Shown piece after piece: positions 2,518 through 40,589 of a DNA stretch of 45,484 nucleotides. This DNA is from Polyangiales bacterium. GTDB lineage: Bacteria; Myxococcota_A; Polyangia; Polyangiales; Houyiibacteriaceae. Both the position numbers and the translations under genes were made by a program. The notes under the pieces were generated by a model. It was not told where the DNA came from and searched no databases. It saw only the letters and a program-made list of their open reading frames with translations. The stretch spans positions 1-45,484 of the forward strand of contig JBLYYU010000210.1 in NCBI GenBank assembly GCA_048550275.1. Direction: 5' to 3'. The first letter of the stretch is position 1. Every line of letters begins with the position of its first letter.

Positions 2518-4251
2518 ATGCGCGGTCTGTTACTCTGTGCAGACGTGAATCGCGGAAGAACCATCTCGCGCTATCGAGTCTTGGATCGCATTGCCGAAGG
2601 CGGCATGGGCGAGGTGTACCGAGCCAAGATGGAAACCCTGGGTGGCGCTGAGAAGGTGGTCGCCCTGAAGGTCGTGCGCAGCGACCTGGCGAAGAACGAC
2701 GAGTTTGCTTCCCTGTTCATCGACGAAGCGCGGCTCGCCATGGGGCTTTCGCACGCCAACATCGTTCAGTCGTTCGACGCAGGGCGCATCGATGACCAGC
2801 TCTTTCTCGCCATGGAGTACGTCGCCGGCGTTCACCTTGGTGATTTGCTCCAAGCATGCGAACGGCGATTCCAGCAACCGATCCCGCATCGGCACCTGAT
2901 CTACATCGCCGTCGAATCGCTGAAGGGGCTCGACTACGCGCACCGGCGCGTCGATAGCAACGATCAGTCGCTGGGCGTCGTTCATCGCGACGTATCGCCT
3001 GGCAACATCCTGATCTCTTGGGAGGGAGAGGTGAAGGTCGCGGACTTCGGAATTGCGAAGAGCGCCCTTCGGTCCAGAGAAACGACGGGGGAGCGGGTCA
3101 AAGGCAAGCTTCCCTACATTGCGCCGGAGCAGCTTCGCCAGTCGGGTGTCGATCGCCGCACGGACATCTACAGCTTGGGCGCCGTCATGTACGAAGCCCT
3201 CACCGATCGTTGGCTCGTCGACGCCAACGACGCTGAAGAGGCCATCCCAGACATTCTGCGAGGGCGCTTTCCGAGGCCGCGGGAGATCAATCCGGAGATC
3301 CCCGAGGCCGTCGAGGAGATCGTCCTTCGCGCGCTCTGCACCGATGCCAGCGCGCGGTACCCGTCCGCAGCAGCGATGCGACAAGAGCTCGAGCGCTACG
3401 CGCTGTCCGACGGGTATCTTTTGTCGTCCACGGACCTTGCCGATTTTCTCGGTGCCATCCGCTCGAGATCCGACGACCGGAACGAGCGTGGCGACCTCGG
3501 CGGGCCGGAACGATGGAGCAGCGTTTCGTCTCCGAATGAAGCCGTACAGAACGGGCCGTTCAATGATTTACTCGGGGCGGAGCTGCGCAAGATCGACACG
3601 GCCGATGGGTACAGCGTGTTCACGACCGGTGAGGTCTCCGGGGTCGTCGGAACAGATGAGCTCGGGTCGGCAAATAGGAAGCCCCCCGGGCGGCGCAGAC
3701 GGTCCGTGAGTTGGCTTCTCGCTCTCTTCGGCTTGGTCACCGTGCTATCACTGTTCGGATTCTGGGCGCGCCGCAGCAACCAAATGGAAGCCGCTGTGAA
3801 GACCCCGTCGCAAGCCGTGATCCCGCCGGCAACGGAACGGCCGGCCGCACAGCCAGAGGCGGTTCAAACGCCGTCACCGGTGATGGAGACGCCGGCGCCT
3901 GAGTCTCCTGTCGACGAGGTTTCCGACCGACCCTCCGTCGGGCCCCGTCCGCCAAAGGCCCGAAGGCGTTCCCGCCCGTCCAAAAAGCGCGCTGCAACGG
4001 CGGCCGAGGCGGCCATTGCAGCCCCAACACCAGCGCCGGCGTACGTCTCGGTAAACTCGGATCCCTGGTCGTATGTGACTATCGACGGCAGTCGCATCAA
4101 CACCACACCGCTGCGCAACCATCGCCTCGAGCCGGGTCGCCATCAGGTCATCCTCGAGAACCCAGAAGCCGGGCTCGAGCGACGTTTTGAAATCGAGGTC
4201 GACCCTGGAGAGAGCAAGCGGCTGAGCGTGGACCTTCGGGGGACTCCATGA
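2518..4251 (+). CDS. Hanks-type Ser/Thr protein kinase with transmembrane helix and extracytoplasmic PEGA-like tail
   Basis: 577-aa ORF. Kinase motifs are GGMGEVYRA (G-loop), VALKVV (catalytic Lys), HRDVSPGNILI (catalytic loop), VADFGIAK (DFG) and YIAPEQ (APE). A TM helix reads WLLALFGLVTVLSLFGFW, followed by a Pro/Ala-rich linker. The C-terminal segment YVSVNSDPWSYVTIDGSRINTTPLRNHRLEPGRHQVILEN is PEGA-like. Confidence 0.9.
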   Translation: MRGLLLCADVNRGRTISRYRVLDRIAEGGMGEVYRAKMETLGGAEKVVALKVVRSDLAKNDEFASLFIDEARLAMGLSHANIVQSFDAGRIDDQLFLAMEYVAGVHLGDLLQACERRFQQPIPHRHLIYIAVESLKGLDYAHRRVDSNDQSLGVVHRDVSPGNILISWEGEVKVADFGIAKSALRSRETTGERVKGKLPYIAPEQLRQSGVDRRTDIYSLGAVMYEALTDRWLVDANDAEEAIPDILRGRFPRPREINPEIPEAVEEIVLRALCTDASARYPSAAAMRQELERYALSDGYLLSSTDLADFLGAIRSRSDDRNERGDLGGPERWSSVSSPNEAVQNGPFNDLLGAELRKIDTADGYSVFTTGEVSGVVGTDELGSANRKPPGRRRRSVSWLLALFGLVTVLSLFGFWARRSNQMEAAVKTPSQAVIPPATERPAAQPEAVQTPSPVMETPAPESPVDEVSDRPSVGPRPPKARRRSRPSKKRAATAAEAAIAAPTPAPAYVSVNSDPWSYVTIDGSRINTTPLRNHRLEPGRHQVILENPEAGLERRFEIEVDPGESKRLSVDLRGTP

Positions 4252-5582
4252 CCACACGAGCGACCCGCACCCTGATGGTCGGCGACAAGTCACGGCGCAA
4301 GATTCGACGCTATCGCTTGAAGTCCGCAGACGGTCCCGCGCACGACTTCCAATCACAGCTCGTCCGAGCCGGCTCCCGATCCGGCAACGAGCTCGTGCTC
4401 GACGACAGCGCAGTCAGCCGAATCCACTTCGAGATTTCGGTCGATGACGTCGGCTACCGAATCCGAGATCTCGACAGCCGCAACGGGACCTGGGTGGACG
4501 GCTACCGCGTTGTCGAGATGTACCTGCCCTCTGGATGCACCATCCGAGCCGGTAGCACCGAGCTTCGATTCTCAGTCTTGGATGACGAGATCGATGTTCC
4601 GGCGACGCTCTCGGATGGTTTCGGGCCACTCGTTGGTTCGAGCCTACCAATGCGGGAGCTATACGCGGTCATCGACCGCGCGGCGCCCACCGACGTCACC
4701 GTCCTAATCGGCGGTGAAACGGGCACCGGCAAAGAGCTGGTCGCACACGCGCTACACGAGCGCAGCCCCCGTGCCGAGGGTCCTTTGGTCGTGCTCGATT
4801 GCGGCGCGGTTCCTGCAAACCTGCTCGAGAGCGAGGTCTTTGGCCACGAGAAGGGTGCATTTACCGGCGCGAACGCGCGGCGGGCGGGTTTGCTGGAAGA
4901 GGCAAACGGGGGCACCCTCTTCATCGATGAGGTCGGCGAGTTGCCGATCGAGCTACAGCCCAAGCTCTTGCGGGCGCTCGATCAACGCGAGATTCGCCGG
5001 CTCGGTGGGCGGGATACCATTGCGCTCGACTTGCGCGTGATCGCGGCAACCAACCGGGATCTTTCGGTCGAGGTGAACCGTGGAGCCTTTCGGGAGGATC
5101 TCTTCTACCGCCTGGCCGTCGTGCAATTGACGCTGCCGCCTCTTCGAGACCGGCGTGACGATGTTCGGGCGCTCGCCGAGCACTTCGTGCGAATCGCTTT
5201 CAAAGGCGACGGGCCGCGCGCGGCCGAGGTGCTGGCGGGGATCGACGAAGAGAACTGGAAGCGACTGGAGCTCCATCCGTGGCCTGGCAACGTGCGGCAG
5301 CTCCGAAACGTCATCGAGCGCACGCTGGCCCTGAGTGAGCCGTCCTCCATGGCCTTCGACCTTCCGGGTTCCGAAGCGGGGGTGCCCCGCCGTTCACCGA
5401 GTACGCCCGAGGCGGACTTGGACCGTCCGTTTGCGGAGCAAAAGCGCGACGTCATTGCAGGCTTCGAGCGCGCCTACCTCGAAGGGCTTCTGGCCCGGCA
5501 CGGTGGCAATTTCTCACGTGCGGCCGCGGCAGCCGGCATGGATCGCATGTATTTCAAGCGGCTCCTGAAGAAATACCGCTGA
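4248..5582 (+). CDS. FHA-domain sigma-54-dependent transcriptional activator (bacterial enhancer-binding protein)
   Basis: 444-aa ORF. The N-terminal FHA signature reads GSRSGNELVLDDSAVSRIHFEI...RDLDSRNGTWVDGYRV. The AAA+ core has Walker A GETGTGKE, an intact GAFTGA loop (ESEVFGHEKGAFTGA) and Walker B LFIDEVGEL. The C-terminal Fis-type HTH reads NFSRAAAAAGMDRMYFKRLLKKY. The start overlaps the kinase stop (ATGA at 4248-4251). Confidence 0.9.
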   Translation: MTTRATRTLMVGDKSRRKIRRYRLKSADGPAHDFQSQLVRAGSRSGNELVLDDSAVSRIHFEISVDDVGYRIRDLDSRNGTWVDGYRVVEMYLPSGCTIRAGSTELRFSVLDDEIDVPATLSDGFGPLVGSSLPMRELYAVIDRAAPTDVTVLIGGETGTGKELVAHALHERSPRAEGPLVVLDCGAVPANLLESEVFGHEKGAFTGANARRAGLLEEANGGTLFIDEVGELPIELQPKLLRALDQREIRRLGGRDTIALDLRVIAATNRDLSVEVNRGAFREDLFYRLAVVQLTLPPLRDRRDDVRALAEHFVRIAFKGDGPRAAEVLAGIDEENWKRLELHPWPGNVRQLRNVIERTLALSEPSSMAFDLPGSEAGVPRRSPSTPEADLDRPFAEQKRDVIAGFERAYLEGLLARHGGNFSRAAAAAGMDRMYFKRLLKKYR

Positions 5583-10049: not shown

Positions 10050-10202
10050 ACAAGCTCAACTAGCGACCAACGGGACAGATGAAGTCGCCAACCCGGGTTG
10101 GGTCGTGGCCATGGTCGCTCCCAGGCCGTCGGAAGTGGGCTGAGGTGCCCGAAATATGCGGTGTAGATAAGGCGCGGCATCCGATGGTATCGTAGATGAC
10201 CC

Positions 10203-13088
10203 GTGTCCTCTCGCCCTTGGCTTCCCCTGTTCTCGTTCTTGCTTCTCGCATGTGCCGGATGCGAGCTGGGACCCAAGCTCGCCTGCAATGTGGACGGAGA
10301 TTGCTTCGACGGCCTGACGTGCGTGGAAGGCTTGTGCCACCAGTGCACGGCAGACCGGCCCGGCTGTGCGTGCATCGAGCGGAGCTGCCTTGGCGGCTTG
10401 GTCTGTGGCGCGGGGAGCACATGCGCGCCCTGCTCGGCGGATGTGCCCTGCACCACGGGGCTCGCGTGTGATCGAGGCCAGTGCGTCGGGTGTAGCTCGG
10501 ACTTCGCAGGCTGCCCATGCGATGCGGGGCAATGTGGAACGGGCTTGAGGTGCAACGAAGCGAACCAATGCGAAGCGCTGGCGTGCTCGGACGGCGCCCG
10601 CAACGGCGACGAGACCGATGTGGACTGCGGGGGGTCTTGCGAGCCCTGCGCGAAAGGATCGCGGTGCCTCTTCGCCACGGATTGTGAAAGCCTCGCATGC
10701 GATCAAGGAGCTTGCCTCGCCGTCGGAAGCTGCCTCGTCCCAACGAATGAGTTTCCGAAGATTCAATCCGCGGTTGACGACACGCGGTGCACCACAGTCC
10801 TGCTCGAAGAAGGCGTCTTCGACGAACGCGTCCGCGTTGACCGGCCGATCGAGATCATCGGTGTCCCGAGCATCGACTCTGTCGAAGATGGCACCGTGTT
10901 GAGGAGCATCGATTCCAGACCGACGATTGGAATTACCGAAGGAGCCGGCACGGTCTATCTTCGACACCTTTGGATCCGTGACGGCTCGGCATTCCGCGGA
11001 GCTGGCGTTCTCTCCAAACGAGACCTCGTCGTTGAACACAGCCGCTTCACCGGGAATCGCGCCAACTTGAATGCCGTGTCAGAGGAGGAGCAGCCCCACC
11101 CGTGCGGGGGCGCGATATTCGTGGAGGACGCGAATCTAACGGTTCGGGAGTCCAGCTTCGTCGAAAACCAGGCGGAGGAAACCCGGTTCGCGGTGCAGCT
11201 CATCGATGTGGAAGCGTACGGCGGGGCGATCTGCATGTTTGGCGAGGGTGAGCTTCTGGTCGAATCGTCCGAGTTTCGGCGCAATCTGGCGACGACGACG
11301 ACCGACATTCCGCCGGAGGTTCTGTATCCGAATCCATATGGTGTGGTGAGCACCGCTTCTGGAGGCGCGATATATCGGTCGGAGGAAGGCTCGAACGTCG
11401 TCCGCGACTCTACGTTCAGTGAGAACAAGGCCCGTTCTCATGTCGTCTATCATGAGGGAGAGCTTCGGAATTCAATCTCGGTCGGTGGCGCGATGGCCGT
11501 TCCCCGGCCGCGGTCCAGTGAGGACTATGCGATCGCGACTGTTATCGAACGCAGCGTCTTCGTCGAGAATGTGTCCCACGCTGACGGCGTTGCCAACATT
11601 GGAGCCTCGGCGCGGGCCGGCGCGGTCGAGCTTGGGGGAGTGTTGATTCGCGACAGTACATTCGAGCACAATCGAGCCTTTGCGAATTCCCTCTATTCCT
11701 CTCTTTGTAATGCCGGCGCAGCGTCTCTGCGTGGCGGACGCTTGGAGTCGACTCGATTTTTCCGCAACAGCGTGGAGGGCACGACCACGTTTGCGGCCGC
11801 ACTCAACGTTGGCAAACCAAGCACGATCCTAAACTCGGTCTTTTGGGACAACCGAGGAGCTTCGTCGAGTGCCGTCCAACTGGTGGGTCGGTCTGGGCGC
11901 GGCTGGCTCATCAACTCGACCCTCCTGGATAACGGACCCGGGCCCCAGCTAGCATCACAGTATGGTGAGCTCGTTCTCAAGCATACGGTCATCGCCGGTG
12001 GTCACGGGGTGTGCGACATCGATCATCTGGTCTCTGGCGGGTACAATGTGCTGGAAGAGCATGGTTGCCTCACCCCGATCGCCACCGAGACCGATCGAGT
12101 CGTGAGGGCGCCCCTGATTGAAAGGGTGTACGACCGATCCAATGCTCTGCGGACGCCAATAAGAGACGGGGTCGGCACCACGGATATTTACTCGGCCCCC
12201 GGCTTCCCCTTGATCAACAGTCCGGTGATCGACGGTGGCGATCCGAACGGATGTCACGACGAAGCCGACGAGCTCATCTCGGTCGATAGTCGGGGCGCAG
12301 AGAGAATCGGGCCGTGCGACATCGGTGCTTTCGCATTCGAGCCCGAGCAACGCACGCGGACCCCGCTGACCGCGTACCTTCTTCGACGGGTGACTTTGCG
12401 ATCTCCCGAGGTTTTCGCTCCCGGCGACGAGGGTTGCGAAATCAATGTGACTCAGCACTTCAATGCTCTCATCAACGAGTCGATGGTGGCAGACACTGCC
12501 CGTCCACCGGACCAAGAATGCGACGGGCTGATCGATTCACCGCTTGTGCTGATCCTCGAAAAAGAAGGCGACCGCTCTGGCCAGTCGCAGCTCAGACGGA
12601 CAAAGTGCGTTGCCACGCATCTCGCCTGTGAAGATCCGTGGTTTCCGCTCGTGCCGTGGCAGGGGCAAGTTGAGTACCACATTCTCGCAAACGAGCCTTG
12701 TGCGCTTGATGAGGGGCGAGCCGTCCTCGGCTCGGGGGATCACGGTTGCATAGAGGCCGGGCTCAGTAGCACGCAGTTCGATGTGGGAGTTACGTTCGAG
12801 TTCCTGAGTGCGGAGCTCATCGGTCAGATCGCCGCGCAGCCCGATCGAATTTCCAACGGCATTCTCAGAGGGTTCATGCGTGAAGGCATCGCAAGAGGCT
12901 TGCCGATTCCGAGCTTCATGCAGGCCGCCCTCGGCGGGGCGACGGCCCTGTCGGACCTTCTGTGCGGCGCCGAGCTCGAGGAATGGAGCGGACTCCCCGG
13001 CCATTTCTTCGAGTTCGGCGTGGAGTTCGAAGCAGTCACCTTGTATGGCAAAGGACTACCCCCAATTTACCCGGCTGACTGTGAGTAG
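10203..13088 (+). CDS. Large Cys-rich / parallel beta-helix lipoprotein, paralogue 2
   Basis: 961-aa ORF with a GTG start, collinear with 7043-9901 over the full length. It has the same lipobox (LLLACAGC), the same Cys spacing, ACSDGARNGDETDVDCGGSCEPC, GGAI repeats, CDIGAFAFEPE, PPDQECDGLIDSPLVL and a C-terminal LPPIYPADCE. Identity to paralogue 1 is roughly 55-60% by eye. Confidence 0.8.
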   Translation: MSSRPWLPLFSFLLLACAGCELGPKLACNVDGDCFDGLTCVEGLCHQCTADRPGCACIERSCLGGLVCGAGSTCAPCSADVPCTTGLACDRGQCVGCSSDFAGCPCDAGQCGTGLRCNEANQCEALACSDGARNGDETDVDCGGSCEPCAKGSRCLFATDCESLACDQGACLAVGSCLVPTNEFPKIQSAVDDTRCTTVLLEEGVFDERVRVDRPIEIIGVPSIDSVEDGTVLRSIDSRPTIGITEGAGTVYLRHLWIRDGSAFRGAGVLSKRDLVVEHSRFTGNRANLNAVSEEEQPHPCGGAIFVEDANLTVRESSFVENQAEETRFAVQLIDVEAYGGAICMFGEGELLVESSEFRRNLATTTTDIPPEVLYPNPYGVVSTASGGAIYRSEEGSNVVRDSTFSENKARSHVVYHEGELRNSISVGGAMAVPRPRSSEDYAIATVIERSVFVENVSHADGVANIGASARAGAVELGGVLIRDSTFEHNRAFANSLYSSLCNAGAASLRGGRLESTRFFRNSVEGTTTFAAALNVGKPSTILNSVFWDNRGASSSAVQLVGRSGRGWLINSTLLDNGPGPQLASQYGELVLKHTVIAGGHGVCDIDHLVSGGYNVLEEHGCLTPIATETDRVVRAPLIERVYDRSNALRTPIRDGVGTTDIYSAPGFPLINSPVIDGGDPNGCHDEADELISVDSRGAERIGPCDIGAFAFEPEQRTRTPLTAYLLRRVTLRSPEVFAPGDEGCEINVTQHFNALINESMVADTARPPDQECDGLIDSPLVLILEKEGDRSGQSQLRRTKCVATHLACEDPWFPLVPWQGQVEYHILANEPCALDEGRAVLGSGDHGCIEAGLSSTQFDVGVTFEFLSAELIGQIAAQPDRISNGILRGFMREGIARGLPIPSFMQAALGGATALSDLLCGAELEEWSGLPGHFFEFGVEFEAVTLYGKGLPPIYPADCE

Positions 13089-13091
13089 GTC

Positions 13092-13757
13092 GTGATCGTC
13101 TCCGTCCAACCGGATGAACGCTACCCGGGACGATCCGAGCCACTGTCCTTGCTTCAAGACAGTCGCGCCCTCCTCGACGATTTTCGAGCCGGCACCTCGG
13201 ACGCCCTCACTACGGTCTTCAACGCGTACGTCGATGACATTGCGCGCGTCGTTCGGTTCGGCTTCGCCTTGGACGACCGGTCGTATGTCTATGGGATCGC
13301 GGATTCCGAAGAACAAAAGGACATGGTTCAAGAGGTGTTCGTTCGTGCGTTCGCCGACAAGGCACGTGCGGCGTACGACGGTCTTCGCCCTTACCGCCCG
13401 TACGTGCTTCGCATTGCGAAGAACCTCATGATCGACCGCGCCCGAAAGATCGGACGGCGCCCCAAGAAAGTCGAGCCCAGCGTCGAAATCTCGATCGACG
13501 CCTTGATCGACAGGGATGCCCCGCTTCCTGAGCTCGAGGAAGATATCGACTGGAAGAACCAGAGGGCGATCGCCCGTAGCTACATTGGGTCGCTCTCGTC
13601 GGAGCTGTCCGAGCTCGTGCGGCTTCGGTTCGTCGAATGCCTCGCCCAAGCGGACGTCGCACGGGCGATGGGAATTACCCGGCGTAGGGTCCGAACCCTC
13701 GAAAAACGCGCGCTCACCGGGCTCGTGCGCCTTCTGAAACGCGAAGAGGCGATGTAA
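13092..13757 (+). CDS. ECF-type RNA polymerase sigma factor (sigma-70 family, regions 2 and 4)
   Basis: 221-aa ORF. Its GTG start lies 3 nt after the stop of paralogue 2. Region 2-like sequence reads DIARVVRFGF...QEVFVRAF...YRPYVLRIAKNLMIDRARK. The region 4 HTH reads LSELVRLRFVECLAQADVARAMGITRRRVRTLEKRALTGL. Confidence 0.85.
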   Translation: MIVSVQPDERYPGRSEPLSLLQDSRALLDDFRAGTSDALTTVFNAYVDDIARVVRFGFALDDRSYVYGIADSEEQKDMVQEVFVRAFADKARAAYDGLRPYRPYVLRIAKNLMIDRARKIGRRPKKVEPSVEISIDALIDRDAPLPELEEDIDWKNQRAIARSYIGSLSSELSELVRLRFVECLAQADVARAMGITRRRVRTLEKRALTGLVRLLKREEAM

Positions 13758-13806
13758 TGTGCCCTGAATCCGGAGACGAGCGTATGAGGCCTAGGGGCGA
13801 GCACCA

Positions 13807-14391
13807 ATGAACCAAGAAGAACGGGCGGCCAGGTTGCTTCGAGGGCAGAACACCCCTTCGGTGATCGAACGCGAACGGATGTCGAAAGAGGTTCTCGAGC
13901 GCGTTGGCGCAGGGCGTACCAAGCGTTCTCGCTTTCGAATTGGGCTGGCCGCCGCCGCAACAACCGGCGCCGTGGCTCTGCTCTTCGTCGCATTGCCCGG
14001 AGAGTTGACGCCACGCAGCGCAGGAGACGGCGCCGTTCTCGACGCACTTTGTCAGCCAGGCCCTGGCTGCCGCCAAGGAAACCGCTTGGTTCTTCGCGTG
14101 TCAAACCATGAAGGGGAACAAGGGTACATGGCGGCGTTTGCACAGCGAAGCGACGGGACGGTGATCTGGTACTTCCCCGAAGACGAGAGCAGCCGCGCGC
14201 TGCCGTTCCGCAACGGCGAGTGGATGAACCGGGCCGTGGTATTGGGCCCCGAACACGTCCCCGGCGACTACGACATACACGCGGTGCTGAGCGCGACCCC
14301 GATCGACCAGGGCACGGTGCGCTCGCTCGTCGAGCGGGGCGGCGATGATCAGCACCTCTTGCTCAACACCAAGGTCCGCGTGGCTCCATGA
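13807..14391 (+). CDS. Single-pass membrane protein, putative anti-sigma factor with DUF4384-like extracytoplasmic domain
   Basis: 194-aa ORF immediately after the ECF sigma gene. It has a short cytoplasmic N-terminus, a TM helix (IGLAAAATTGAVALLFVAL), and then LVLRVSNHEGEQGYMAAFAQRSDGTVIWYFPEDESS...GDYDIHAVLSATPI, which matches my recollection of the DUF4384 pattern. No ZAS HxxxCxxC motif is present. Confidence 0.55.
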   Translation: MNQEERAARLLRGQNTPSVIERERMSKEVLERVGAGRTKRSRFRIGLAAAATTGAVALLFVALPGELTPRSAGDGAVLDALCQPGPGCRQGNRLVLRVSNHEGEQGYMAAFAQRSDGTVIWYFPEDESSRALPFRNGEWMNRAVVLGPEHVPGDYDIHAVLSATPIDQGTVRSLVERGGDDQHLLLNTKVRVAP

Positions 14392-15968
14392 AGAGCGCGT
14401 GCTTTGCACTTGGCTTTCTCCTCATGACCGCGGTCTCATCGGAGGCTGGCGCAAAGGTGAAGCGCTACGCACTCATCGTTGGCAACAATGCCCCGCCCGC
14501 CGGCGAAGCCTTGCTCAAACCGCTCAAATACGCCGACGACGACGCCGCGCGGTACTTCGAGCTCACCCGCAGCTGGGGCGCGGAAAGCATTCTCTTGGCG
14601 GTCCTCGACTCCGCCACCCAGCGCCGTTTCCCGCAGCTGCCCATCATGGCTCGCCCGCCGACCCGCGAGAACCTGGACGACGCCCTCAACGCGCTCTCCG
14701 ACAAGGTCGCCTACGATCGGAAGCGAGGAGACGAGCCCGTGCTCTATTTCATTTTCGCCGGACACGGTTCGATACGGGACGGCTCGCCGTACTTGTCCTT
14801 GCTTGATGGCCGCATCACTCAGCAGGTCCTGTACGACGAGATCATCGCCCGAGTCTCCGCGGCGCGCACGCACCTCATCGTGGATGCGTGTCACGCAGGC
14901 GGGGTGGTCGGGTCTCGAGGTTTGTTCGATCGCGAGCTCACCGCCACCACTTCAGACGTTTCAGTCGACGAGGTGGCGGGGTTGTCGAAGCTGAGCCAGC
15001 ACCCAAACGTCGGCGTGATTTTGGCCGCCACCCTCGGGGAGGAGGTGCATGAATGGTCTCGCATCGAGTCTGGCGTGTTCTCGCACGAGGTGATCTCCGG
15101 CCTCCGTGGCCCGGCCGACGTCAATCGCGACGGCCGGATCGAGTACTCTGAAATTCAGGCCTTTGTCGCATCGGCGAATCGCGACCTCAAGGACCGAAGG
15201 ACGGCGCCGCACGTCATCGCGTACCCACCGGCCCAGGACCACCACAGCCCTCTGGCCCTGCTTTCGGAGCAAGGAGGCGTGGCCTGGCTCGAAGGCAACG
15301 CGACAAACCTCGGGCACTTCTACGTCGAACGCGAAAGCGGGGAACGCCAGTTGGACGCGCATTTCTCATCCCCGATCCCGATTCGGTTCGCCATCCCGGC
15401 AAACGAAGTCGTGTATGTGCACACCGCGACCGGAGAAGCGCAGGTCGACGCCGGCGAAGGTCAAATTCTCGAAATCTCGAAGCTCCAGTTCGAGGACAAG
15501 GAGCTGGCCGAGCGGGGAAGCGCCGAAAACGATTTCAGGGAGAGCCTTTTCGCGTCGCCCTTCAGTGAGGCGTACTACCTCGGGTTCGTCGACCACGGGC
15601 AGGTGACGCCGGTGAGCTTCGACGGCCCCGCACTGCTCTACGACGTTCCCGCGCCACCGAATCGGAAGCGGATCGCGATTGGCTTCTTCTCGACCAGTGG
15701 CGTCGCGTTCGCCGCCACTCTCGTCTCGGGAGGTATCATGGCCAAGGCCAAGCGCGACTACGACGACACCGAGATTCAGGGGGAAGCCGCCGAGGCGCAG
15801 AGCAGATTCGAGAGCGCCCGCACCGCTACGATCGTCTCGGGGAGCGTCACCGCCGTGACCGCGATCGTCGGCGCCATCGTTTGGCCGAAGAAGAAGGTTG
15901 CCCGATTCAGCGCGGAGGTCGACCCCCACAGACGACACTACGGTGTCCGAGCATCGATTCGCTTCTGA
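14388..15968 (+). CDS. Exported caspase-fold (peptidase C14 / orthocaspase-like) protein with C-terminal membrane anchors
   Basis: 526-aa ORF. An N-terminal signal peptide (MKSACFALGFLLMTAVSSEAGA) is followed by KRYALIVGNN. The catalytic dyad context is YFIFAGHGS (His126) and HLIVDACHAGG (Cys168). Two hydrophobic helices lie near the C-terminus (IAIGFFSTSGVAFAATLVSGGIM, ATIVSGSVTAVTAIVGAIVW). The start overlaps the upstream stop (ATGA at 14388-14391). Confidence 0.85.
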   Translation: MKSACFALGFLLMTAVSSEAGAKVKRYALIVGNNAPPAGEALLKPLKYADDDAARYFELTRSWGAESILLAVLDSATQRRFPQLPIMARPPTRENLDDALNALSDKVAYDRKRGDEPVLYFIFAGHGSIRDGSPYLSLLDGRITQQVLYDEIIARVSAARTHLIVDACHAGGVVGSRGLFDRELTATTSDVSVDEVAGLSKLSQHPNVGVILAATLGEEVHEWSRIESGVFSHEVISGLRGPADVNRDGRIEYSEIQAFVASANRDLKDRRTAPHVIAYPPAQDHHSPLALLSEQGGVAWLEGNATNLGHFYVERESGERQLDAHFSSPIPIRFAIPANEVVYVHTATGEAQVDAGEGQILEISKLQFEDKELAERGSAENDFRESLFASPFSEAYYLGFVDHGQVTPVSFDGPALLYDVPAPPNRKRIAIGFFSTSGVAFAATLVSGGIMAKAKRDYDDTEIQGEAAEAQSRFESARTATIVSGSVTAVTAIVGAIVWPKKKVARFSAEVDPHRRHYGVRASIRF

Positions 15969-15981
15969 AGCGCACCCGCCC

Positions 15982-16674
15982 TTAAGGAACCCACAGGTAG
16001 CCGTGGCCGCGCTCCGTTCGGCACTTGTCGAAGGACGGCTCGAGCTCGCGGAAACGCAGTCGAATGCCGCGAATGTGCGCGGCGATCGTGTTGTTTGCGA
16101 CGCAAATGCCCGCAGCTCGCATGAGCGCTTCCGCGGTCTTTGGCTGTGGTGCGTCGATCGCGAGCTCTCTCACGATGCGATAGTAGGTGAGGGAAAGCTG
16201 CACCGGCGTTTCGCGCCAGAAGGCTGCGCAGCGACGTGATTCGATGCGAAGCGAGCCTACCACGATCGCGGGACTCGGAGGTTTGGGTCGATCCAAGAGC
16301 GTGTCGTGGCGGGCAAGCAAAGTCTCCAATCGTATGCCGAGAAACCGGAGGCTCGCGTCGCGCGGGATGTGATCATCAGCCCCAGCACGAAACCCCAGAA
16401 TCCGTTCTTCCTCGCTCGTATGGGCGGTGAGGAACGCGACTGGGAGTCGCGGCCACAAGGCCCGGATATCCGAACAGAGTCGAATGCCGCCATCGCGCTC
16501 GACACCGAGCGGCACGTCGAGCAGCGCCAGGTCTGGGGGCGCCGTCGAAAACGCCCTGAAAGCCGGTACGCGTTCGCCAAAAGCCTGAACCCGATATCCC
16601 GAGGCCCGTAAGAACTCGGCGTAGTTTTCGCGGACAACCCGGTCGCCCTGCACCAGAGCAATCGTTCGTTCCAT
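15982..16674 (-). CDS. OmpR/PhoB-family response regulator (atypical receiver, no adjacent histidine kinase)
   Basis: The start was trimmed to the Met at 16674 (MERTIALVQGD...), giving 231 aa. The receiver has a phospho-acceptor context (PDLALLDVPL) and the sequence FLTAHTSEEE. The C-terminal winged helix reads VQLSLTYYRIVRELA...NTIAAHIRGIRLRF...RGHGYLW. The acidic pocket reads QGD rather than DD/DE. The conserved Lys position reads GADDHIPRD rather than GADDY-x-x-KP. Confidence 0.85.
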   Translation of the reverse strand: MERTIALVQGDRVVRENYAEFLRASGYRVQAFGERVPAFRAFSTAPPDLALLDVPLGVERDGGIRLCSDIRALWPRLPVAFLTAHTSEEERILGFRAGADDHIPRDASLRFLGIRLETLLARHDTLLDRPKPPSPAIVVGSLRIESRRCAAFWRETPVQLSLTYYRIVRELAIDAPQPKTAEALMRAAGICVANNTIAAHIRGIRLRFRELEPSFDKCRTERGHGYLWVP

Positions 16675-16952
16675 CGTCAACCTCGATACTTTGTCAAAAC
16701 GCTCACTGCCCCTCATACGCGCGACGCTGGATTCTGGTCGCGAAAAATGAAAATGAGCCAGTGGCGGTTTTCCTAGACACGCGAGCGTTCTGTGCCGCGC
16801 CACTCGCGGGTCGTGCCGCCCTCGGTGAGGTTGTCGGTCAAGCGTCAACGTGGGCCGTTGTCGCGCGAATCCTTGTTTGGATAGGTTCGCCCGACTTTGT
16901 GATCAACGACGGGTTGGGGTGCCATCGCTGATTAGAGATCCGCCCATGAAGA

Positions 16953-17065: not shown

Positions 17066-17094
17066 TCGGATCTCGCTCAGCGGGTCGGCGAGCT

Positions 17095-17149
17095 TTCATC
17101 TTGCTTCACGATGATTCATCAAGATTCACGCCAACTCACACTAATTCAC
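17095..17149 (+). promoter_or_regulatory. Array of six 10-bp-phased TTCAY pentamers (candidate winged-helix response-regulator binding array)
   Basis: TTCAT(17095) TTCAC(17105) TTCAT(17115) TTCAC(17125) CTCAC(17135) TTCAC(17145) are spaced at exactly 10 bp. Four of the six are preceded by A (ATTCA / ACTCA). The array ends 90 bp upstream of the ATG at 17240, which has a GGAGG 6 nt upstream. The protein partner is inferred, not shown. Confidence 0.6.
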
Positions 17150-17239
17150 AACCACCTAGGGCAACCTTCCAAGTCTAGCGGCGGACCGTCGCAGTTCTGA
17201 ACCGAACTTGGCGTTCGTGTCTAAACCCGGAGGTGAGCG

Positions 17240-19171
17240 ATGTCTGATGAGAGCAGCACGAGAAGAGCGAAGAAAGCCCAAGGCGGCCGTTTTGGGAAAT
17301 GCACAGTTGGCTCCTTCTTGCCGCTGATCCTTGCAGGGGCGTACTTCAGTATGGGTCCGTCAGATTGCGGTGGGGATATCGAGGGAGATGTCACGCCAGA
17401 GAATCTGAAGCTCTACACCGAACTCGCCTCGATCGAGATTCCGATTCTCAAAAGCGAGAGCTGGGACGGCGGTACAGAAGAGCCGTATTTCATTGGGTTC
17501 GAGTGGTGGGCCACCTCCAAGAACGCCGAAACCAATCAAAACGGAAACTCGAACGTGAAGATCCTCAACCGGTTCCCAGGCAGCGATGACCTGCCGTCAC
17601 AGGCGGTTCGACGCCAGATGGTCGAGGGATCGCAGGTTTTGTTGCCTGAGACGTTCAGCCGAACCTGGGGCCTCTTCGACGAACAGGTTCTTCCAAAAAC
17701 ATTGGAAGACGCCGAGAATAGTCACGTCAAAATCTCTGGGATCACGATCTGTGCGTTTGAAGATGACACGGACGGTGATTCCCCGTTCGTCTACAATCGC
17801 GTCTACGAATACGCGCAAAGCGCGCAAGGCGATTTTAAGAAGGATCTCGAAGCGTTCACGCAGAGAACGATCTCCGACCCCTACATTGCCGAGAAGGCGA
17901 ACGTTGTCGGCATCATCACCTCGGTTCTGGGAATCGCGGTCGACCTCGTTCCAAAGCTCATCGCGCTGTTCAAGAAGGACCCGCCAACTCCAGACGACTT
18001 CGCTGGGTGTGCTTCTTTCGCCTATGTCGGCGTGCCACACTCGGTGCTCGACGATATCCCGGGACCGAAGCCGCCCTGCTACTCGTCTTCCCGAAACCTC
18101 TTGTGCCCGATCGACGCACGACCGGAGGACATTCCCTATCTAGAGGAACAGCGTCGCGACGACGGAGTGCCCCCTCAGCTACGATTCGTGGTCCTAGGGG
18201 ACGAAGACCCCGGCCCCTCGAGCGAAGGACTCGATATACGGCTAAACCGTACCTGGCTTGCCGACGTCGAACTCCGCACAGGCCTCTACCGAACGTCGCG
18301 CTCGGCACACGAGACGTACACCGTGGCTGCCGGTGCGACCGCCGGTGACCTTTGGATTCCAGCTCCGACACACCAGCGACTCGTTACTTCCGGCCAGCGA
18401 GTTCTTCGGTTTGCCCACGTGGTGGACTACCAAACGCTCTGGACGCCGCTCTTGAATTTTGACATTCGCCCGTCCGGCTCGGGCTTTCTGCTCGACGTGG
18501 TCGCCGGCTTGCCCGTGTCCAGTGTGTCCGTCCGAGTGTCCACCGTCACGCTCCCGCAGGAAGTCGAAGTACATCGGGAGACTGCAACAATTTCGTCCGG
18601 AGAGACCTTCACATTCTGGTATCCCGAGGCTTATCAACCCAGCGATCGTTACGTTGTCATCCCGGAAATCCTCTCCCTTCAGCAGGGACTCGGTCGCTTC
18701 GAGTTCGAGGTCGAATCATATCCAGATCGAGCCGAGGTTCGGCTTCAGGGCTACCAATTTCCCCATACGCTTCCGGTCAATTGGCCTGGTACTGATGGGC
18801 CTGACGTCCAGATGACTGTGCGAATGACGTGGATCAGTGGAACCGATCCCGATTTGCGGGCGCCGATGAACGTCAAGCGATTGCACGTGACTTCCAATCA
18901 AGAGGTCAACAACGGTGCCGCCGATCCAGAGGAGCGCACATTGAACGATTGGAACGCGAGCCAAGCAGACGGTGCGAACCTTTATTTCCTGGACGCTTTT
19001 GACTCGGACCTGTCTCACAATAGCGGCTGGCATGTGCGCGCGGTCGGCGCCGAGTTCTTGGAGTACGACACGGGAACGGCCCGCTTGTTGGTTCAAGACA
19101 CCTACGACTTCGAGGGCGGTTCGGCCGCGTGGGCCCGCGGAAAGCTCGTGAATATCTCGTTCATGGAATAG
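17240..19171 (+). CDS. Hypothetical exported protein, no recognisable family (ORFan)
   Basis: 643-aa ORF with a good RBS (GGAGGtgagcgATG). The basic N-terminus is followed by a hydrophobic segment (SFLPLILAGAYFSMG) and there is one internal hydrophobic/amphipathic stretch (VVGIITSVLGIAVDLVPKLIALF). G+C is visibly lower, and the composition richer in N/K/E/S/T, than in neighbouring genes. I could not match any catalytic motif. Confidence 0.7.
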   Translation: MSDESSTRRAKKAQGGRFGKCTVGSFLPLILAGAYFSMGPSDCGGDIEGDVTPENLKLYTELASIEIPILKSESWDGGTEEPYFIGFEWWATSKNAETNQNGNSNVKILNRFPGSDDLPSQAVRRQMVEGSQVLLPETFSRTWGLFDEQVLPKTLEDAENSHVKISGITICAFEDDTDGDSPFVYNRVYEYAQSAQGDFKKDLEAFTQRTISDPYIAEKANVVGIITSVLGIAVDLVPKLIALFKKDPPTPDDFAGCASFAYVGVPHSVLDDIPGPKPPCYSSSRNLLCPIDARPEDIPYLEEQRRDDGVPPQLRFVVLGDEDPGPSSEGLDIRLNRTWLADVELRTGLYRTSRSAHETYTVAAGATAGDLWIPAPTHQRLVTSGQRVLRFAHVVDYQTLWTPLLNFDIRPSGSGFLLDVVAGLPVSSVSVRVSTVTLPQEVEVHRETATISSGETFTFWYPEAYQPSDRYVVIPEILSLQQGLGRFEFEVESYPDRAEVRLQGYQFPHTLPVNWPGTDGPDVQMTVRMTWISGTDPDLRAPMNVKRLHVTSNQEVNNGAADPEERTLNDWNASQADGANLYFLDAFDSDLSHNSGWHVRAVGAEFLEYDTGTARLLVQDTYDFEGGSAAWARGKLVNISFME

Positions 19172-19405
19172 CTCCCGAGTCTGCGCGCTGAACCGTCGAG
19201 CAATGGTGGGAGTGTGCCGGCGGTGTGTCGCGTGAGAGTAGGCGCTGCAAGGTCGTCGTTTTTCCGTGCGCGAGCTCAGGCCGATGCGGTGTACGCCGTT
19301 CATCTAAATTCATAAAAAAAGTTTTCGCCCATCGCGAGTCGAACCCAAGAACCTTCGCCCGACGTTCTTCGAATTCGCAGGCGAAACCCATGGTAGGATG
19401 GCGCG

Positions 19406-21412
19406 ATGAAGGCCGGTGGTTTTCTTTGGTGCCTAGTTTTCGTTCTCTTAGCGTGCAGTAGCTCGAGCTCCGACGCGCCCGAGGTGGTGAGGCCACCGGA
19501 CGACTCGGGGCGAATCTGCCCACCCAATTCACAGCTGAACGCCGCAGGCGATTGCATGCCGATCGACGAGTGTCTTTCCCCGTCGATCAAGCGCATCGGC
19601 TCTTTCGTGATGCCCGACAGAGGCCGAGACGTCGTGCGCCACGAAGACCTGATCTACATGGCCGCTGTAGGGGGAGGGCATGGCCTCGCCGTGCTCGATG
19701 TCAGCGACCCAGTGCGGGCGGCGCAGGTAGCCCACGTCCCAAGCGAAGTCTTCGAGCGGCTCGCGATTCACGACGGCTGGCTCTACGCGCTAGCGGACTC
19801 CGTCTTGATCTTCGATATCACGAACCCGCTCGCGCCCGACGCGGTCGCAACGCTCAATCCACCGGGTAGGCCGAGTGCCATCGCCTTCGAAGGCGACTTT
19901 GCCTACACCGTCGCCGGCGAAGCCGGATTCCGGATCTACGACGTATCGGACCCGAGGAGCCCGCTACCCGTCGGGTTCGTCGACACCGACGCTGGCTCGG
20001 ACGTCGCGGTGCAGGGAGGGCGTGCGTACATCGCCGCGGACTCCGAGGTCTTGATCATCGACGTGTCCGACCCGCTCGCGCCTACCATCGAAGGGTCGCT
20101 GTCGCTCACCGCACAAACCGGAAGAGCCGAGAGTATCGCCGTGGTCGGCGATCGTGCGTATGTCGGAGCCGCCTGGGGGAATTCGAACGGACGGCTCGTC
20201 GCGTTGGACGTGTCGACGCCGTCGACACCGAACTACGAGGGCCAGACGGATCTGCTCGGGTCTCGGATTTTCAGGATCGACGCGCGCGGGGGAACTCTCT
20301 ATGCGGTGGCGTACCACGTGGGCCTCCTCGTCTACGAAATCACCGAGTCTGGAGATCTCTCACTACGTACCACCGTCGAGGCGATAAGCCGGCCGCGCGG
20401 CATCGCGATCGATGACACGACGGCCTACGTCGTGGGCGATAGCGGCCCACTGGCGGTCCTGGATCTCTCCGAGCCGGCAGACCCAAGGCCCGTGTTCTCT
20501 TCGCTGGGACGGTTTCAGGCAGGGAATCTCCACGCCGAGGATGGGCTGCTCTACGTAGGAACTTCGGACGGGCTCTGGATCTTGGACACGACCGACCCAG
20601 CGCGCATCGTGCTCGAAGGGCTCGTCGAGCTTCCCGACGTGACCGTCGATATCGAGGTCTCGGGAGCCACGGCGTACCTCGCGCTTCGGGAGGCCGGGCT
20701 GGCGCTAGTCGACGTATCGGACCCGCGCGCCCCGAGACTGATGTCCGTCACCGACACGCTAGGCGAAGCGTTCAGTGTCAGTGTCCAAGGGTCTTACGCG
20801 TATGTCACGGCCGGGCGGAACGGGCTCTTGGTAGTAGACAGCTCGGATCGCGAAAACCCTTTGGTATTGAGTGGGTTCTCCGCCTCGAGATCTTGGGACG
20901 TCGCGACTCGGGACGGCGTCGCCTATCTCACCGACACAGCGCGCGGACTGATCACGGTTGATGTGACGCGCCCCAGCATGCCGACCGAGCTCGACTCGAT
21001 CGTGGAGGACTCGTCAACCGAGTTCTTCGGCATCACGCTGGTCGGTGACCGCGCCTACGTCAAACACACGCGGAGGGGCCAGTCCGGGTTCATCCACAAC
21101 GGGCTCTCGGTCATTGACATCTCCGATCCCGAGAGACTCGGAAAGATGGAACGCCGCGCCTTGCTGGACCTCACCGACGTGACGACGGACGGCCGCTACC
21201 TCTACCGCGCCAGAGCCGCGTCTCCCGGTTTCGCGAGCGGGCACCTGGCAGTTGACAGCCCGTTTGGTCCGATAGTCTACGATATGACGAACGAAACCAT
21301 CTTCACCTTGGCCGCAACGGAGAACCACATTTACGGCTTGGTCTCCGGCGAGGGGCTCGCCGTGTTCGAGTTCGATGACTGTGGTGCTTCGGATGTGCTC
21401 GGCGTGCCGTGA
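19406..21412 (+). CDS. LVIVD-repeat beta-propeller lipoprotein
   Basis: 668-aa ORF. The lipoprotein signal reads FLWCLVFVLLACSSSS. At least 8 repeats follow the form G-x-x-AY-(V/L)A-x-x-x-G-(L/F)-x-(I/V)(I/V)D(V/L)SDP-x-x-P, for example GDFAYTVAGEAGFRIYDVSDPRSP, GGRAYIAADSEVLIIDVSDPLAP, GATAYLALREAGLALVDVSDPRAP and GSYAYVTAGRNGLLVVDSSDRENP. Confidence 0.8.
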   Translation: MKAGGFLWCLVFVLLACSSSSSDAPEVVRPPDDSGRICPPNSQLNAAGDCMPIDECLSPSIKRIGSFVMPDRGRDVVRHEDLIYMAAVGGGHGLAVLDVSDPVRAAQVAHVPSEVFERLAIHDGWLYALADSVLIFDITNPLAPDAVATLNPPGRPSAIAFEGDFAYTVAGEAGFRIYDVSDPRSPLPVGFVDTDAGSDVAVQGGRAYIAADSEVLIIDVSDPLAPTIEGSLSLTAQTGRAESIAVVGDRAYVGAAWGNSNGRLVALDVSTPSTPNYEGQTDLLGSRIFRIDARGGTLYAVAYHVGLLVYEITESGDLSLRTTVEAISRPRGIAIDDTTAYVVGDSGPLAVLDLSEPADPRPVFSSLGRFQAGNLHAEDGLLYVGTSDGLWILDTTDPARIVLEGLVELPDVTVDIEVSGATAYLALREAGLALVDVSDPRAPRLMSVTDTLGEAFSVSVQGSYAYVTAGRNGLLVVDSSDRENPLVLSGFSASRSWDVATRDGVAYLTDTARGLITVDVTRPSMPTELDSIVEDSSTEFFGITLVGDRAYVKHTRRGQSGFIHNGLSVIDISDPERLGKMERRALLDLTDVTTDGRYLYRARAASPGFASGHLAVDSPFGPIVYDMTNETIFTLAATENHIYGLVSGEGLAVFEFDDCGASDVLGVP

Positions 21413-26222: not shown

Positions 26223-27389
26223 GTGCCACGTCGTAGAAGCAGTCTGTCCGCGACTGAGGCGCGTCGAGTCGCGCTTGCCGCGCAGGGATTCGACCGGCCG
26301 CGACCGGCGACGCCGTCCGATGTGCGACATTTTCGGCGAGCCCTGCATGCCATCGGTGTTCTGCAGCTCGATTTTGTGAATGTGCTCATTCCTGCGCATT
26401 TCCTGATGCTGTGGTCGAGGCTGGGTGGCTACGACCGAAATCGCCTCGAACGCTTTCTCTATGATTCGCGCGAGTTCACCGAGCACTGGGCACATGAAGC
26501 CTCGATCGTACGGGTGAGTGACTGGCCGTTACTCAACTACCGTCGCGAGACCTGGCGCCCCTGGAAGCACGACCCGCTGCAAACGCTGGACAATCCCGAG
26601 GCCTACCTGGGATCTATCCTGGAACAGATCGCCGTGGATGGCGGCGTCACGGCCAACGATCTGCCGGCGGCGCCTAGCCCCACTAGCGGCAAACCGGGCG
26701 ACTGGAACCGGCCAATACAACGTTGGGCACTGGAGCACCACTTCGGTCGCGGACAGCTCGCCGTGCGGCGGCGCCTCAGTAATTTCCAGCGAGTGTACGA
26801 CCTTCCGGAACGCCTGATCGATGATGAGCATCGTCTTCAGTGCACGACTGAAACCGACGCACGTCGAGAACTGCTGCGACAGTCGGCGCAGTCGCTTGGC
26901 ATAGCGACGGTACACGACCTCGCCGACTACTATCGAATGACGGCGCGCGACGCGGCGCCGAGAGTTGCAGAGTTGGTCGAGGAGGGCGTGCTGACGCCTG
27001 TGGACGTGGAAGGCTGGAAAGACACGGCCTACCTCTCGGATCAGGCTCGGTTTCCGCGCTCCATCCCCGGTGCGTCACTGTTATCTCCGTTCGACCCGCT
27101 TGTCTGGTTCCGGCCGCGAGCCGAACGCTTATTCGATTTCGAGTATCGGATAGAAATCTACGTTCCGGAATCGAAGCGCCGGTGGGGCTACTACGTCCTG
27201 CCGTTCCGCCTGGGAGACAGAATTGTCGCACGCGTGGACCTGAAGGCGGACCGTCCCGGCAGAACCTTGCTCGTACGAAGCCTTCACTACGAAGACGGAG
27301 TCGACCAAAAAGAAACGGCGTCCGCTTTACAGAGCGAGCTCGGTGCGTTGGCAACTTGGCTCAACCTGGAGACAGTGTCCTACTGTTGA
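26223..27389 (+). CDS. ycaQ: YcaQ/AlkZ-family winged-helix DNA glycosylase (interstrand-crosslink repair family, DUF1006)
   Basis: 388-aa ORF with a GTG start and an AGGAG 9 nt upstream. It is collinear with my recollection of E. coli YcaQ. Matching segments are LSATEARRVALAAQGF, LQLDFVNV, EHWAHEASIV, NFQRVYDLPERL and LLSPFDPLVWFRPRAERLFDFEYRIEIYVPESKRRWGYYVLPF. Confidence 0.9.
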   Translation: MPRRRSSLSATEARRVALAAQGFDRPRPATPSDVRHFRRALHAIGVLQLDFVNVLIPAHFLMLWSRLGGYDRNRLERFLYDSREFTEHWAHEASIVRVSDWPLLNYRRETWRPWKHDPLQTLDNPEAYLGSILEQIAVDGGVTANDLPAAPSPTSGKPGDWNRPIQRWALEHHFGRGQLAVRRRLSNFQRVYDLPERLIDDEHRLQCTTETDARRELLRQSAQSLGIATVHDLADYYRMTARDAAPRVAELVEEGVLTPVDVEGWKDTAYLSDQARFPRSIPGASLLSPFDPLVWFRPRAERLFDFEYRIEIYVPESKRRWGYYVLPFRLGDRIVARVDLKADRPGRTLLVRSLHYEDGVDQKETASALQSELGALATWLNLETVSYC

Positions 27390-27418
27390 CGCTGACGCTG
27401 ACGCTGACGCTGACGCTG
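27387..27418 (+). repeat. Hexanucleotide tandem repeat (TGACGC)x5 plus TG
   Basis: Read directly as tgacgc tgacgc tgacgc tgacgc tgacgc tg. The first TGA is the stop codon of the 26223-27389 gene, so the array forms five in-frame TGA codons alternating with CGC. Confidence 0.95.
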
Positions 27419-34031: not shown

Positions 34032-34185
34032 AGGCGGATTGAACGTCCTGGCGACTGTTCTTGTCAAGCGCGGCTGGTCCTGGTCTCTAGTCGCGAAGCA
34101 CGTCGGGACTAGGCCACCGCCGCAAACAAAGATCCAACCAAGGCCCGCGAATCGGCCGGAGGTGCCGTGGATGTAGCCCGCGCGG

Positions 34186-34870: not shown

Positions 34871-35289
34871 TCGCGCGGTTCTCGAGCTGATCGCCATCGG
34901 GCATACGAGTCCGGGAGGGTAGGGCAACGCTGTACGGGTATCCGGGAATTGGGGAGGCAAGGCGAGGTTGTCCAGATATCCGGGAGTCTTGGTAGCGAGA
35001 TGACCTAGGCCCACGCCCCGGTCCGAGACGGAGCCGACGGAGGTAGACCACGAAGCCGGCAAGCTCCTCGGAGAGCGATAGTCCGAGAACAACAGTTCCA
35101 ACGATACAAACTCCGCATCGCGCTACTCTCGTCCTCGTGTTGCAAAGAGCTCACGCCTGTGGCGACCAGGTTCACATTCCAACCGATTCGACTTTGAATT
35201 CGCCGGCTTCGAAAGGCGCCAACGCTGGCACGCCTGATGCTACTATCGTTCAGGCAACTTGCTTTTACTTACCTTCATGGAGGTGTGCC

Positions 35290-40452: not shown

Positions 40453-40589
40453 GGGTGTAAAGGGTACCACACTTAGCCCTAGCGCACGGCGTCGGGGTGT
40501 CGCCGCCAAAGGTCGGTTTTTCGAGGCGTCGCTGAGACTCTCTGAACGACGCCCGCGCTACCGCTGCACCTCAAACGCCCCAAAGTCGC

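Follow-up and report, generated by a model that had tools for sequence, protein, structure and literature searches.

The subject of this analysis is a run of short direct repeats, a candidate operator array, in a 45,484-nt contig (JBLYYU010000210.1) of a metagenome-assembled genome (MAG) assigned to a Polyangiales bacterium, which we analysed over its entire length and refer to as the window. The array lies in a 565-bp intergenic region between two divergent genes, one for an orphan OmpR/PhoB-family response regulator, referred to as RR1, and one for a 643-aa protein of a very small family. A shorter candidate site precedes a gene for an LVIVD-repeat lipoprotein. The features concerned are, in sequence order:

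15982..16674, reverse strand: RR1, orphan OmpR/PhoB-family response regulator of 230 aa, divergent from the 643-aa gene
16702..16716, forward strand: weak pair CTCAC-TGCCC-CTCAT, ahead of the RR1 start codon at a distance of 28-43 bp
17095..17154, forward strand: putative operator array, six 10-bp units head to tail
17229..17235, forward strand: ribosome-binding site GGAGGTG, separated by 4 nt from the ATG at 17240, retained in homologous leaders
17240..19171, forward strand: gene for the 643-aa protein, with an array upstream in every recovered homologue
19299..19313, forward strand: putative second site of two units, TTCAT-CTAAA-TTCAT, in the orientation of the LVIVD gene and with 97 nt between its last pentamer and the ATG of that gene
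19406..21412, forward strand: LVIVD-repeat lipoprotein gene, signal ..VLLAC, with the two-unit site upstream

The array consists of six pentamers, each followed by a 5-bp spacer, and is oriented toward the downstream 643-aa gene. Its units read TTCAT-CTTGC (pentamer at 17095-17099), TTCAC-GATGA (17105-17109), TTCAT-CAAGA (17115-17119), TTCAC-GCCAA (17125-17129), CTCAC-ACTAA (17135-17139) and TTCAC-AACCA (17145-17149). A reading made from the letters alone (the sequence-only reading) had reported these six starts at exact 10-bp phasing, and re-reading the sequence bore this out. Its description of the surroundings was equally accurate: the array, said to end about 90 bp before the ATG in a GC-rich setting, ends 91 nt from the ATG at 17240 (counted from the end of the last pentamer) and has a GC content of 0.51-0.52 against ~0.62-0.66 in the flanks, while the divergent OmpR/PhoB-type regulator placed about 420 bp away has its ATG (16674) 421 bp from the array start and aligns over its full length with structures of that family. 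Within the window, the pattern YTCAY-N5 repeated four times matched the array alone (three overlapping matches), and it gave no match in 100 dinucleotide-preserving shuffles. When both strands were scanned for at least three phased pentamers at periods of 8-13, runs were found at period 10 only. Outside the array, TTCAY-N5-TTCAY occurs in the window only at 19299-19313. The weak pair at 16702-16716 is possibly an autoregulatory site of RR1, or else chance, and the evidence is thin; the pair is also present in the orthologous region of a related locus (L002, below), but that region is 83% identical overall, so its conservation says little.

We found no terminator at or near the array, no credible small open reading frame in the intergenic region, and flanking inverted repeats only at chance level. 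To the idea that the repeat acts as RNA, either as a 5′ untranslated element or as a small RNA, we give next to no credence. The array is G-poor and lies upstream of the ribosome-binding site, as such an element might, but Rfam returned no match there (its sole weak match, ROSE_3 at 16718-16758, was below threshold), the predicted fold of 17085-17245 was no better than that of shuffled sequences (z = 0.29), and what is conserved is only the 10-bp register of short cores, with no pairing partners.

The array is a constant companion of the 643-aa gene: an array of five or six units stands upstream of every homologue recovered (L001, L002 1033-3087, L088 and L254). Three of these loci were recovered by protein homology, L254 purely via the protein P0133 (30-36% identical), and L088, from a Myxococcota MAG, was brought in by DNA pattern. 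In L001, an ENA contig, the pentamers TTCAT (four times), CTCAC and TTCAT at 3321-3375 end 96 nt before the ATG of an 81%-identical homologue; here the genes next upstream are unrelated ones and nucleotide homology to the window begins inside the array, which argues that the array follows the gene and not the flank. In L002, six units at 887-941 precede a 29%-identical paralogue of the 643-aa protein; in L254, four TTCAT, one TTCAC and one TTCAT end 50 nt before a gene of the family; and in L088, five units end 62 nt before a 27%-identical family member. Arrays also precede other genes at these loci. L001 has a second six-unit array upstream of an orthologue of an RTX-like gene, 46 bp from a divergent gene for RR2, a canonical paralogue of RR1, and L002 has six units at 5090-5144 upstream of the gene for an RTX-like 533-aa protein; an RR2 gene in L002 lies 70 bp from a six-unit array. 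L002 further carries a 90% orthologue of RR1 and, at 8562-8538 on the other strand, three units that face an lgt-rce1 operon, ~98 bp from this orthologue in the divergent intergenic region. L254, with the gene order RR-rce1-lgt-array-ORFan-RTX, has four units upstream of a gene for a 435-aa lipoprotein (p435), divergent from an RR2-type regulator gene that is flanked by this array and lies 1.7 kb from the six-unit array. As side observations, the ORFan, RTX-like and RR2 genes of L001 are frameshifted and the RR2 of L002 lacks most of its receiver domain (assembly error or gene decay), and in L254 the genes for a 71-aa product and a Fic-domain protein are preceded by a threefold tandem repeat, GTCTTGACAA, at ~10100-10160.

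We next asked which letters of the array are retained, using an in-register alignment of six arrays from the window, L001, L002 and L254 in which pairwise differences were counted. Differences fell at 5 of 360 compared positions in the TTCA core, at 30 of 90 for Y and at 210 of 450 (47%) in the spacers. Between the window and the 81%-identical orthologue of L001, core differences numbered 0/24 and spacer differences 15/30 (Fisher P = 1.8e-5); between the window and L254, where the proteins are just 30-36% identical, the counts were 1/24 and 16/30. Across individual array pairs, Fisher P values for core versus spacer ranged from 1.8e-5 to 2.7e-3. Outside the core we observed weak preferences only, for A/C at −1 and C/A at +5. 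Since the TTCA cores are invariant while the spacers vary, we read the pattern as the footprint of a binding protein and not as a satellite or mobile repeat.

The same comparison bears on a non-specific origin of the array, as curved or UP-like DNA or as a neutral leftover of tandem duplication that moved together with a duplicated 5′ gene cassette. Phased A-tracts do occur in some spacers (in L001, TTCATAAAAC twice), and the ORFan and Hcab genes have homologous leaders and signal-peptide codons, such that their arrays are partly co-descended. However, the window copy lacks A-tracts, free spacers combined with invariant cores are the opposite of what curvature or neutral decay would predict, and the motif recurs in unrelated leaders (LVIVD, lgt, p435, L123/L244 and L249, the last three described below). 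We therefore regard this origin as very improbable. Other repeat classes were rejected outright. A simple tandem satellite or variable-number tandem repeat does not fit, as all six spacers of the window array differ and Tandem Repeats Finder (TRF) scores it at just 31-33, whereas the satellites met in our pattern scans have uniform units. A dispersed mobile repeat, of the repetitive extragenic palindrome or miniature inverted-repeat transposable element type, is contradicted by the gene-start context, the lack of a significant fold and of inverted repeats above chance, and the presence in the window of one array and one pair. Plasmid iterons or a parC-type centromere would call for rep or par genes, of which there are none, and different promoters of one 18-kb contig carry as many as four arrays.

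Every array keeps a period of exactly 10, which was found also in nine further loci. The T/C alternation at pentamer position 5, on which a division of the array into three 20-bp units had been proposed, is present in the window copy but is not kept in the homologous arrays, so the real unit is 10 bp. The number of units differs between promoters (2, 3, 4, 5 or 6), with six held constant in five related arrays. At 12 of 13 conserved sites, the pentamers read as TTCAY on the strand that codes for the nearest downstream gene. The exception, an array in L002 (15716-15682, reverse strand) of the four pentamers TTCAT, ATCAT, TTCAT and TTCAT, is separated by 522 nt from the next gene on the same strand and points opposite to an RTX-like gene at a distance of 125-155 bp.

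Two pattern scans, one of a genome collection with five YTCAY units and one of metagenomes with TTCAY-TTCAY-CTCAC-TTCAY, returned among the matches listed mostly simple 10-mer or 5-mer satellites of unrelated organisms, with L088 alone proving useful. Two matches, L240 and L233, stand unexplained. In L240 (7291-7232, reverse strand), a metagenome contig of 68% GC, six phased YTCAY with differing spacers have a flp-pilin gene on one side and, on the other, a convergent gene for a prepilin peptidase with its 3′ end toward them, and no downstream gene in their orientation; the L088 array likewise follows two flp-like genes.

Most arrays adjoin, or lie within a few kb of, a gene of one OmpR/PhoB subclade, to which RR1 belongs. 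An independent set was provided by 82 kb around eight members of this clade that had not been used for motif discovery. Here, TTCAY pairs occurred seven times at a spacing of 10 and 0-1 times at each other spacing from 6 to 16. L123 and L244 are two lipoprotein-RR-HK operons (response regulator, histidine kinase) with a GC content of 74%; ahead of each, at ~110-125 nt, stands one TTCAY-N5-TTCAK pair, the only period-10 pair of the locus. Their kinases have TIGR03785 as best match, no sortase is present at either locus, and each operon begins with a homologue of the C-terminal part of the RTX-like target. In Halioglobus (L249), the regulator is named a pds regulator by NCBI, and three TTCAT at 10-bp spacing upstream of its gene end on the −35 of a predicted promoter (TTCACA, 16-nt spacer, TATATT; 10/12 matches); a second TTCAY pair precedes a histidine kinase operon. 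In a gammaproteobacterial MAG (L252), near-identical elements TTCAT-AGTTT-TTCAT-AATTC-GTCAT at 12887-12911 and 17379-17403 lie upstream of two lanthipeptide-precursor-like genes beside LanM genes, near a regulator of the same clade. The gammaproteobacterial loci, which we had fetched as canonical Pds systems, contained no sortase genes.

Winged-helix regulators are not the only proteins with pentamer arrays phased at 10 bp, GTGGG-N5 repeats being read by MraZ and the iterons of parC by ParR. In principle, then, another oligomeric DNA-binding protein could read the pentamers and the regulators could be linked to them for some other reason, and two of the arrays have no immediately adjacent regulator gene. 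We consider this improbable given that spacing-10 TTCAY recurs around eight independent clade genes in different phyla, including at autoregulatory positions, and that no mraZ, parR/parM or rep genes were found in the window or the related loci. We conclude, with good confidence, that the array is likely to be a conserved tandem operator for winged-helix regulators of a single PdsR-like OmpR/PhoB subclade. The earlier proposal of a cooperative array for the adjacent regulator holds insofar as the element is tied to the 643-aa gene and to the regulator clade; the identity of the binder is a separate and less certain matter.

Relatives of RR1 were rare in the first homology search, with 11 matches. 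Its receiver domain is recognised by Pfam (PF00072, 1.3e-14), and the protein aligns end to end with the structures of BaeR (4b09, residues 7-228), BasR/PmrA, RpaA and RegX3, with an intact winged-helix domain. The best curated family is TIGR03787 (PdsR), matched at 1.5e-54 over residues 3-228 with 184.9 bits against a cut-off of 335.7; the relatives P0006, P0008 and P0011 reach 247-272 bits. By these scores, the RR1 clade is a sister to TIGR03787 PdsR and not a member of the equivalog. The receiver of RR1 retains the phospho-acceptor Asp (LLDVPL) and the Thr (FLTAHT), and its other changes, described below, recur in two further clusters that are 90% and 58% identical, with Lys replaced by Ala in the latter (P0005). 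RR1 is probably, judging from these residues, an atypical, phosphorylation-independent regulator. The window contig encodes no histidine kinase and no RR2. As a side observation, a block comprising a sigma-70-family/ECF-like (extracytoplasmic function) factor, a 194-aa protein and a caspase-like protein (Peptidase_C14) at 13092-15968 (forward strand), with its counterpart at L002 9408-12284, shares synteny with the regulator gene in the two genomes and converges on it.

As to which protein reads the array, the recognition helix, NT(I/V)AAH(I/V)(R/K)xIRxRF in this clade, is alike in RR1 and RR2, so both could read TTCAY. We give RR1 itself a slightly better than even chance of binding the array. 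Given the similar helices, it may bind unphosphorylated, as the orphan GlnR does (PMC10235972), or compete with RR2. That RR1 is functional is argued by its DNA-binding domain, which is conserved among three clusters at 58-90% identity, and the RR1 orthologue of L002 has a three-unit array of its own in the divergent intergenic region. The alternative, which we rate as possible though on balance unlikely, accepts the operator but assigns it to a canonical, phosphorylatable RR2-type paralogue that is encoded elsewhere in the genome and activates; RR1 would then not be the reader but would, independently of phosphorylation, compete with RR2 or form heterodimers with it at these sites, modulating the response, or would be unrelated to them. 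This assignment is attractive because, in both L001 and L002, an RR2-type gene stands 46-70 bp away from a six-unit array, with arrays also next to such a gene in L254, and because RR2 keeps the VEDDD motif and the Lys that RR1, P0004 and P0005 have all lost. The conservation of the RR1 DNA-binding domain, the private array of its L002 orthologue and the lack of an RR2 gene on the window contig speak against it.

Several observations weigh against an operator read by a regulator of this clade. The Trans_reg_C domain of RR1 (PF00486) scored E = 0.0038, below threshold, its winged helix having diverged, and its receiver lacks both the acidic pair (VEDD→VQGD) and the conserved Lys (→Arg). The orthologous array of L001 has no immediately adjacent regulator gene, the nearest being ~4.8 kb away on the same contig, and the Hcab array of L002 is 3.5 kb from the nearest. 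Several arrays have a common ancestry in paralogous leaders and thus are not independent observations, and the pattern scans, swamped by satellites, give no estimate of genomic distribution. The distance from last pentamer to ATG ranges from 50 to 121 nt across sites. Lastly, a search of the window for sigma-70-like promoters returned 0 sites, with none recognisable between array and ATG, and the 50-nt gap in L254, which requires that the promoter-proximal units overlap the core promoter, fits repression as well as activation. By eye, an ECF-like promoter (GGAAC..CGTC) was rejected for its wrong spacers of 13 or 21 nt, and a sigma-54-like promoter (GG-N10-GC) was absent.

We propose the following mechanism for an operator of this kind. 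Each TTCAY pentamer with its 5-bp spacer would form one half-site for one winged-helix monomer, and six monomers, arranged as three head-to-tail dimers, would bind cooperatively on one face of the helix over ~60 bp. The occupied array would then control transcription of the 643-aa gene at 17240, and the two-unit site at 19299 would do likewise for the LVIVD lipoprotein gene. In the OmpR and PhoP systems, the number of units sets the threshold and cooperativity of the response (PMC3050692, PMC2275107). With no recognisable promoter in the window, and with overlap of the core promoter unavoidable at the L254 gap, we can only infer whether the regulator activates or represses. The array has the orientation of the Pho box at the pstS promoter. 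This Pho-box-like orientation, the Halioglobus array abutting a −10-proficient promoter and the strong activation of neighbouring genes by PdsS/R (PMC11580497) lead us to favour activation; it is reasonably likely that the regulator activates in the manner of PhoB and OmpR, with the promoter-proximal units at or near the −35.

The predicted mode of binding has close precedents. OmpR binds at ompF (F1-F2-F3) and ompC (C1-C2-C3) to three tandem 20-bp sites of two 10-bp sub-elements each, that is, to six head-to-tail half-sites at 10-bp phasing that are filled cooperatively over ~60 bp upstream of the promoter (PMC3050692). Unlike TTCAY, which is sharply conserved, the OmpR cores are degenerate, and OmpR belongs to another clade and organism, whereas the adjacent regulator here is an orphan with a degenerate receiver. 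PhoP of Streptomyces reads tandem direct repeats of two to six or more units whose core, GTTCAY, is almost TTCAY; its class III operators have up to six units, and eight in one promoter, and strong core units nucleate cooperative extension (PMC2275107). The PhoP classes I-III are thus paralleled by the 2, 3, 4, 5 and 6 units found at different promoters here. However, PhoP is of another subfamily and its unit is 11 nt, with 10 nt drastically lowering binding (PMC2275107), whereas the unit here is strictly 10. Because both OmpR, with 3 × 20 bp, and PhoP, with six to eight units, equal the present array (PMC3050692, PMC2275107), its description as unusually long in the sequence-only reading is not supported. 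TorR likewise is an OmpR/PhoB reader of decameric direct repeats with a TTCAT core, CTGTTCATAT × 4 (PMC9239176), but its boxes number four and have conserved flanks, CTG..AT, in place of the weak −1/+5 preferences seen here. The actinobacterial GlnR offers a parallel as an orphan OmpR/PhoB regulator without cognate kinase, four protomers of which bind head to tail around the −35 (PMC10235972); it differs in that its a and b sites are 6 nt apart and in its lineage and regulon, and the phosphorylation-independence of RR1 is predicted from sequence.

The nearest relatives are PdsR and PdsS (TIGR03787 and TIGR03785), the best-scoring curated families for the regulator and for the kinases of its relatives. 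Mutation of the PdsS kinase raises neighbouring pds genes 126-799-fold (PMC11580497). Where that system serves surface proteins and a processing enzyme (PMC11580497), the present one is linked to secreted proteins and lipoproteins and to lgt and rce1. It differs in that RR1 falls below the equivalog cut-off and that the window contig carries no sortase, LPXTG target or adjacent kinase. In the literature searched, we found no description of an operator motif for PdsR or for this clade. The architecture is textbook OmpR/PhoB and would not surprise a specialist; what is new is a PdsR sister clade without sortase neighbours, its motif and its regulon.

We then considered the products of the linked genes. 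The term ORFan that had been applied to the 643-aa gene was nearly right, with 6 matches among 1.84 billion representative proteins. An exact-protein look-up returned nothing, although the homology database does hold the protein as a Polyangiales MAG entry; neither it nor its family has a Pfam or NCBIfam domain, and an AlphaFold2 model built on a seven-sequence alignment (mean predicted local distance difference test score 44.3) was too poor for a fold search. Its N-terminus carries a signal-like segment, ..FLPLILAGAYFSMGPSDCGG, in common with the array-bearing RTX-like proteins; in both of these otherwise unrelated families, the N-terminus takes the form ..LPLILAGAY(L/F)(N/S)MG(Q/P)SxCGG. Carriers are found at 17240-17380 in the window, at 1033, 5233 and 15839 in L002, at 6001 and 8012 in L254 and at 5810 in L088. 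From its sequence, this segment may be a dedicated sorting or maturation signal. Canonical lipoboxes occur in other array-linked products, namely the LVIVD protein, p435 and the first-gene products of L123/L244, the last of which have no Pfam or NCBIfam domain. In the window, the LVIVD gene probably belongs to the regulon as its second member. The regulator gene of L002 and L254 adjoins lgt and an Rce1-like protease gene, and ORFan and RTX-like genes cluster there. Together, the linked genes would make up a small regulon of secreted proteins and lipoproteins, including the ORFan family, the RTX-like proteins, lgt with the Rce1-like protease, and others.

A broader reading, which we offer tentatively and regard as doubtful in its full extent, is that the arrays form the control layer of an undescribed, dedicated protein-maturation system of this Polyangiales/Myxococcota lineage. 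A PdsR-like two-component regulator acting through TTCAY-N5 operators of graded length (2 to 6 units) might co-induce a private Lgt paralogue, an Rce1/CPBP-type intramembrane protease and their substrates, these being the ORFan and RTX-like proteins with the LPLILAGAY(L/F)(N/S)MG(Q/P)SxCGG signal and classical lipoproteins. RR1, with its degenerate receiver, might serve as a second, phosphorylation-independent reader of the same operators. By analogy, such a system would parallel the dedicated sortase system of proteobacteria, which is under the control of this regulator family, and, if it exists, TTCAY at 10-bp phasing would also be the operator of the wider PdsR family.

The likely operator, TTCAY at strict 10-bp phasing in 2-6 units, gives a concrete site to a clade for which the literature searched describes none, and sketches, for uncultured myxobacteria, a small regulon that takes in secreted proteins, lipoproteins and genes of lipoprotein processing. 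It also provides a natural series of operator lengths for studying cooperative occupancy, together with a canonical and a degenerate-receiver regulator that probably share sites.

Elsewhere in the window, we noted several features apart from the array. A perfect hexamer tandem, TGACGC repeated 5.3 times at 27387-27418, lies between the closely spaced genes for an AlkZ-like DNA glycosylase and a UDG-family protein. TRF further reported a GC-rich 18-bp repeat of 5.4 copies at 31638-31735 and a 21-bp repeat of 2.8 copies at 36490-36549, in or beside open reading frames. The gene at 39802-40509 (reverse strand) encodes a strong match to the ERG2/sigma-1-receptor-like family (Pfam PF04622, E = 1.5e-47), which is known mainly from eukaryotes; near it lie genes for a PT-HINT protein (32679-34406) and a Dictyostelium-type CTDC repeat protein (35137-35904).

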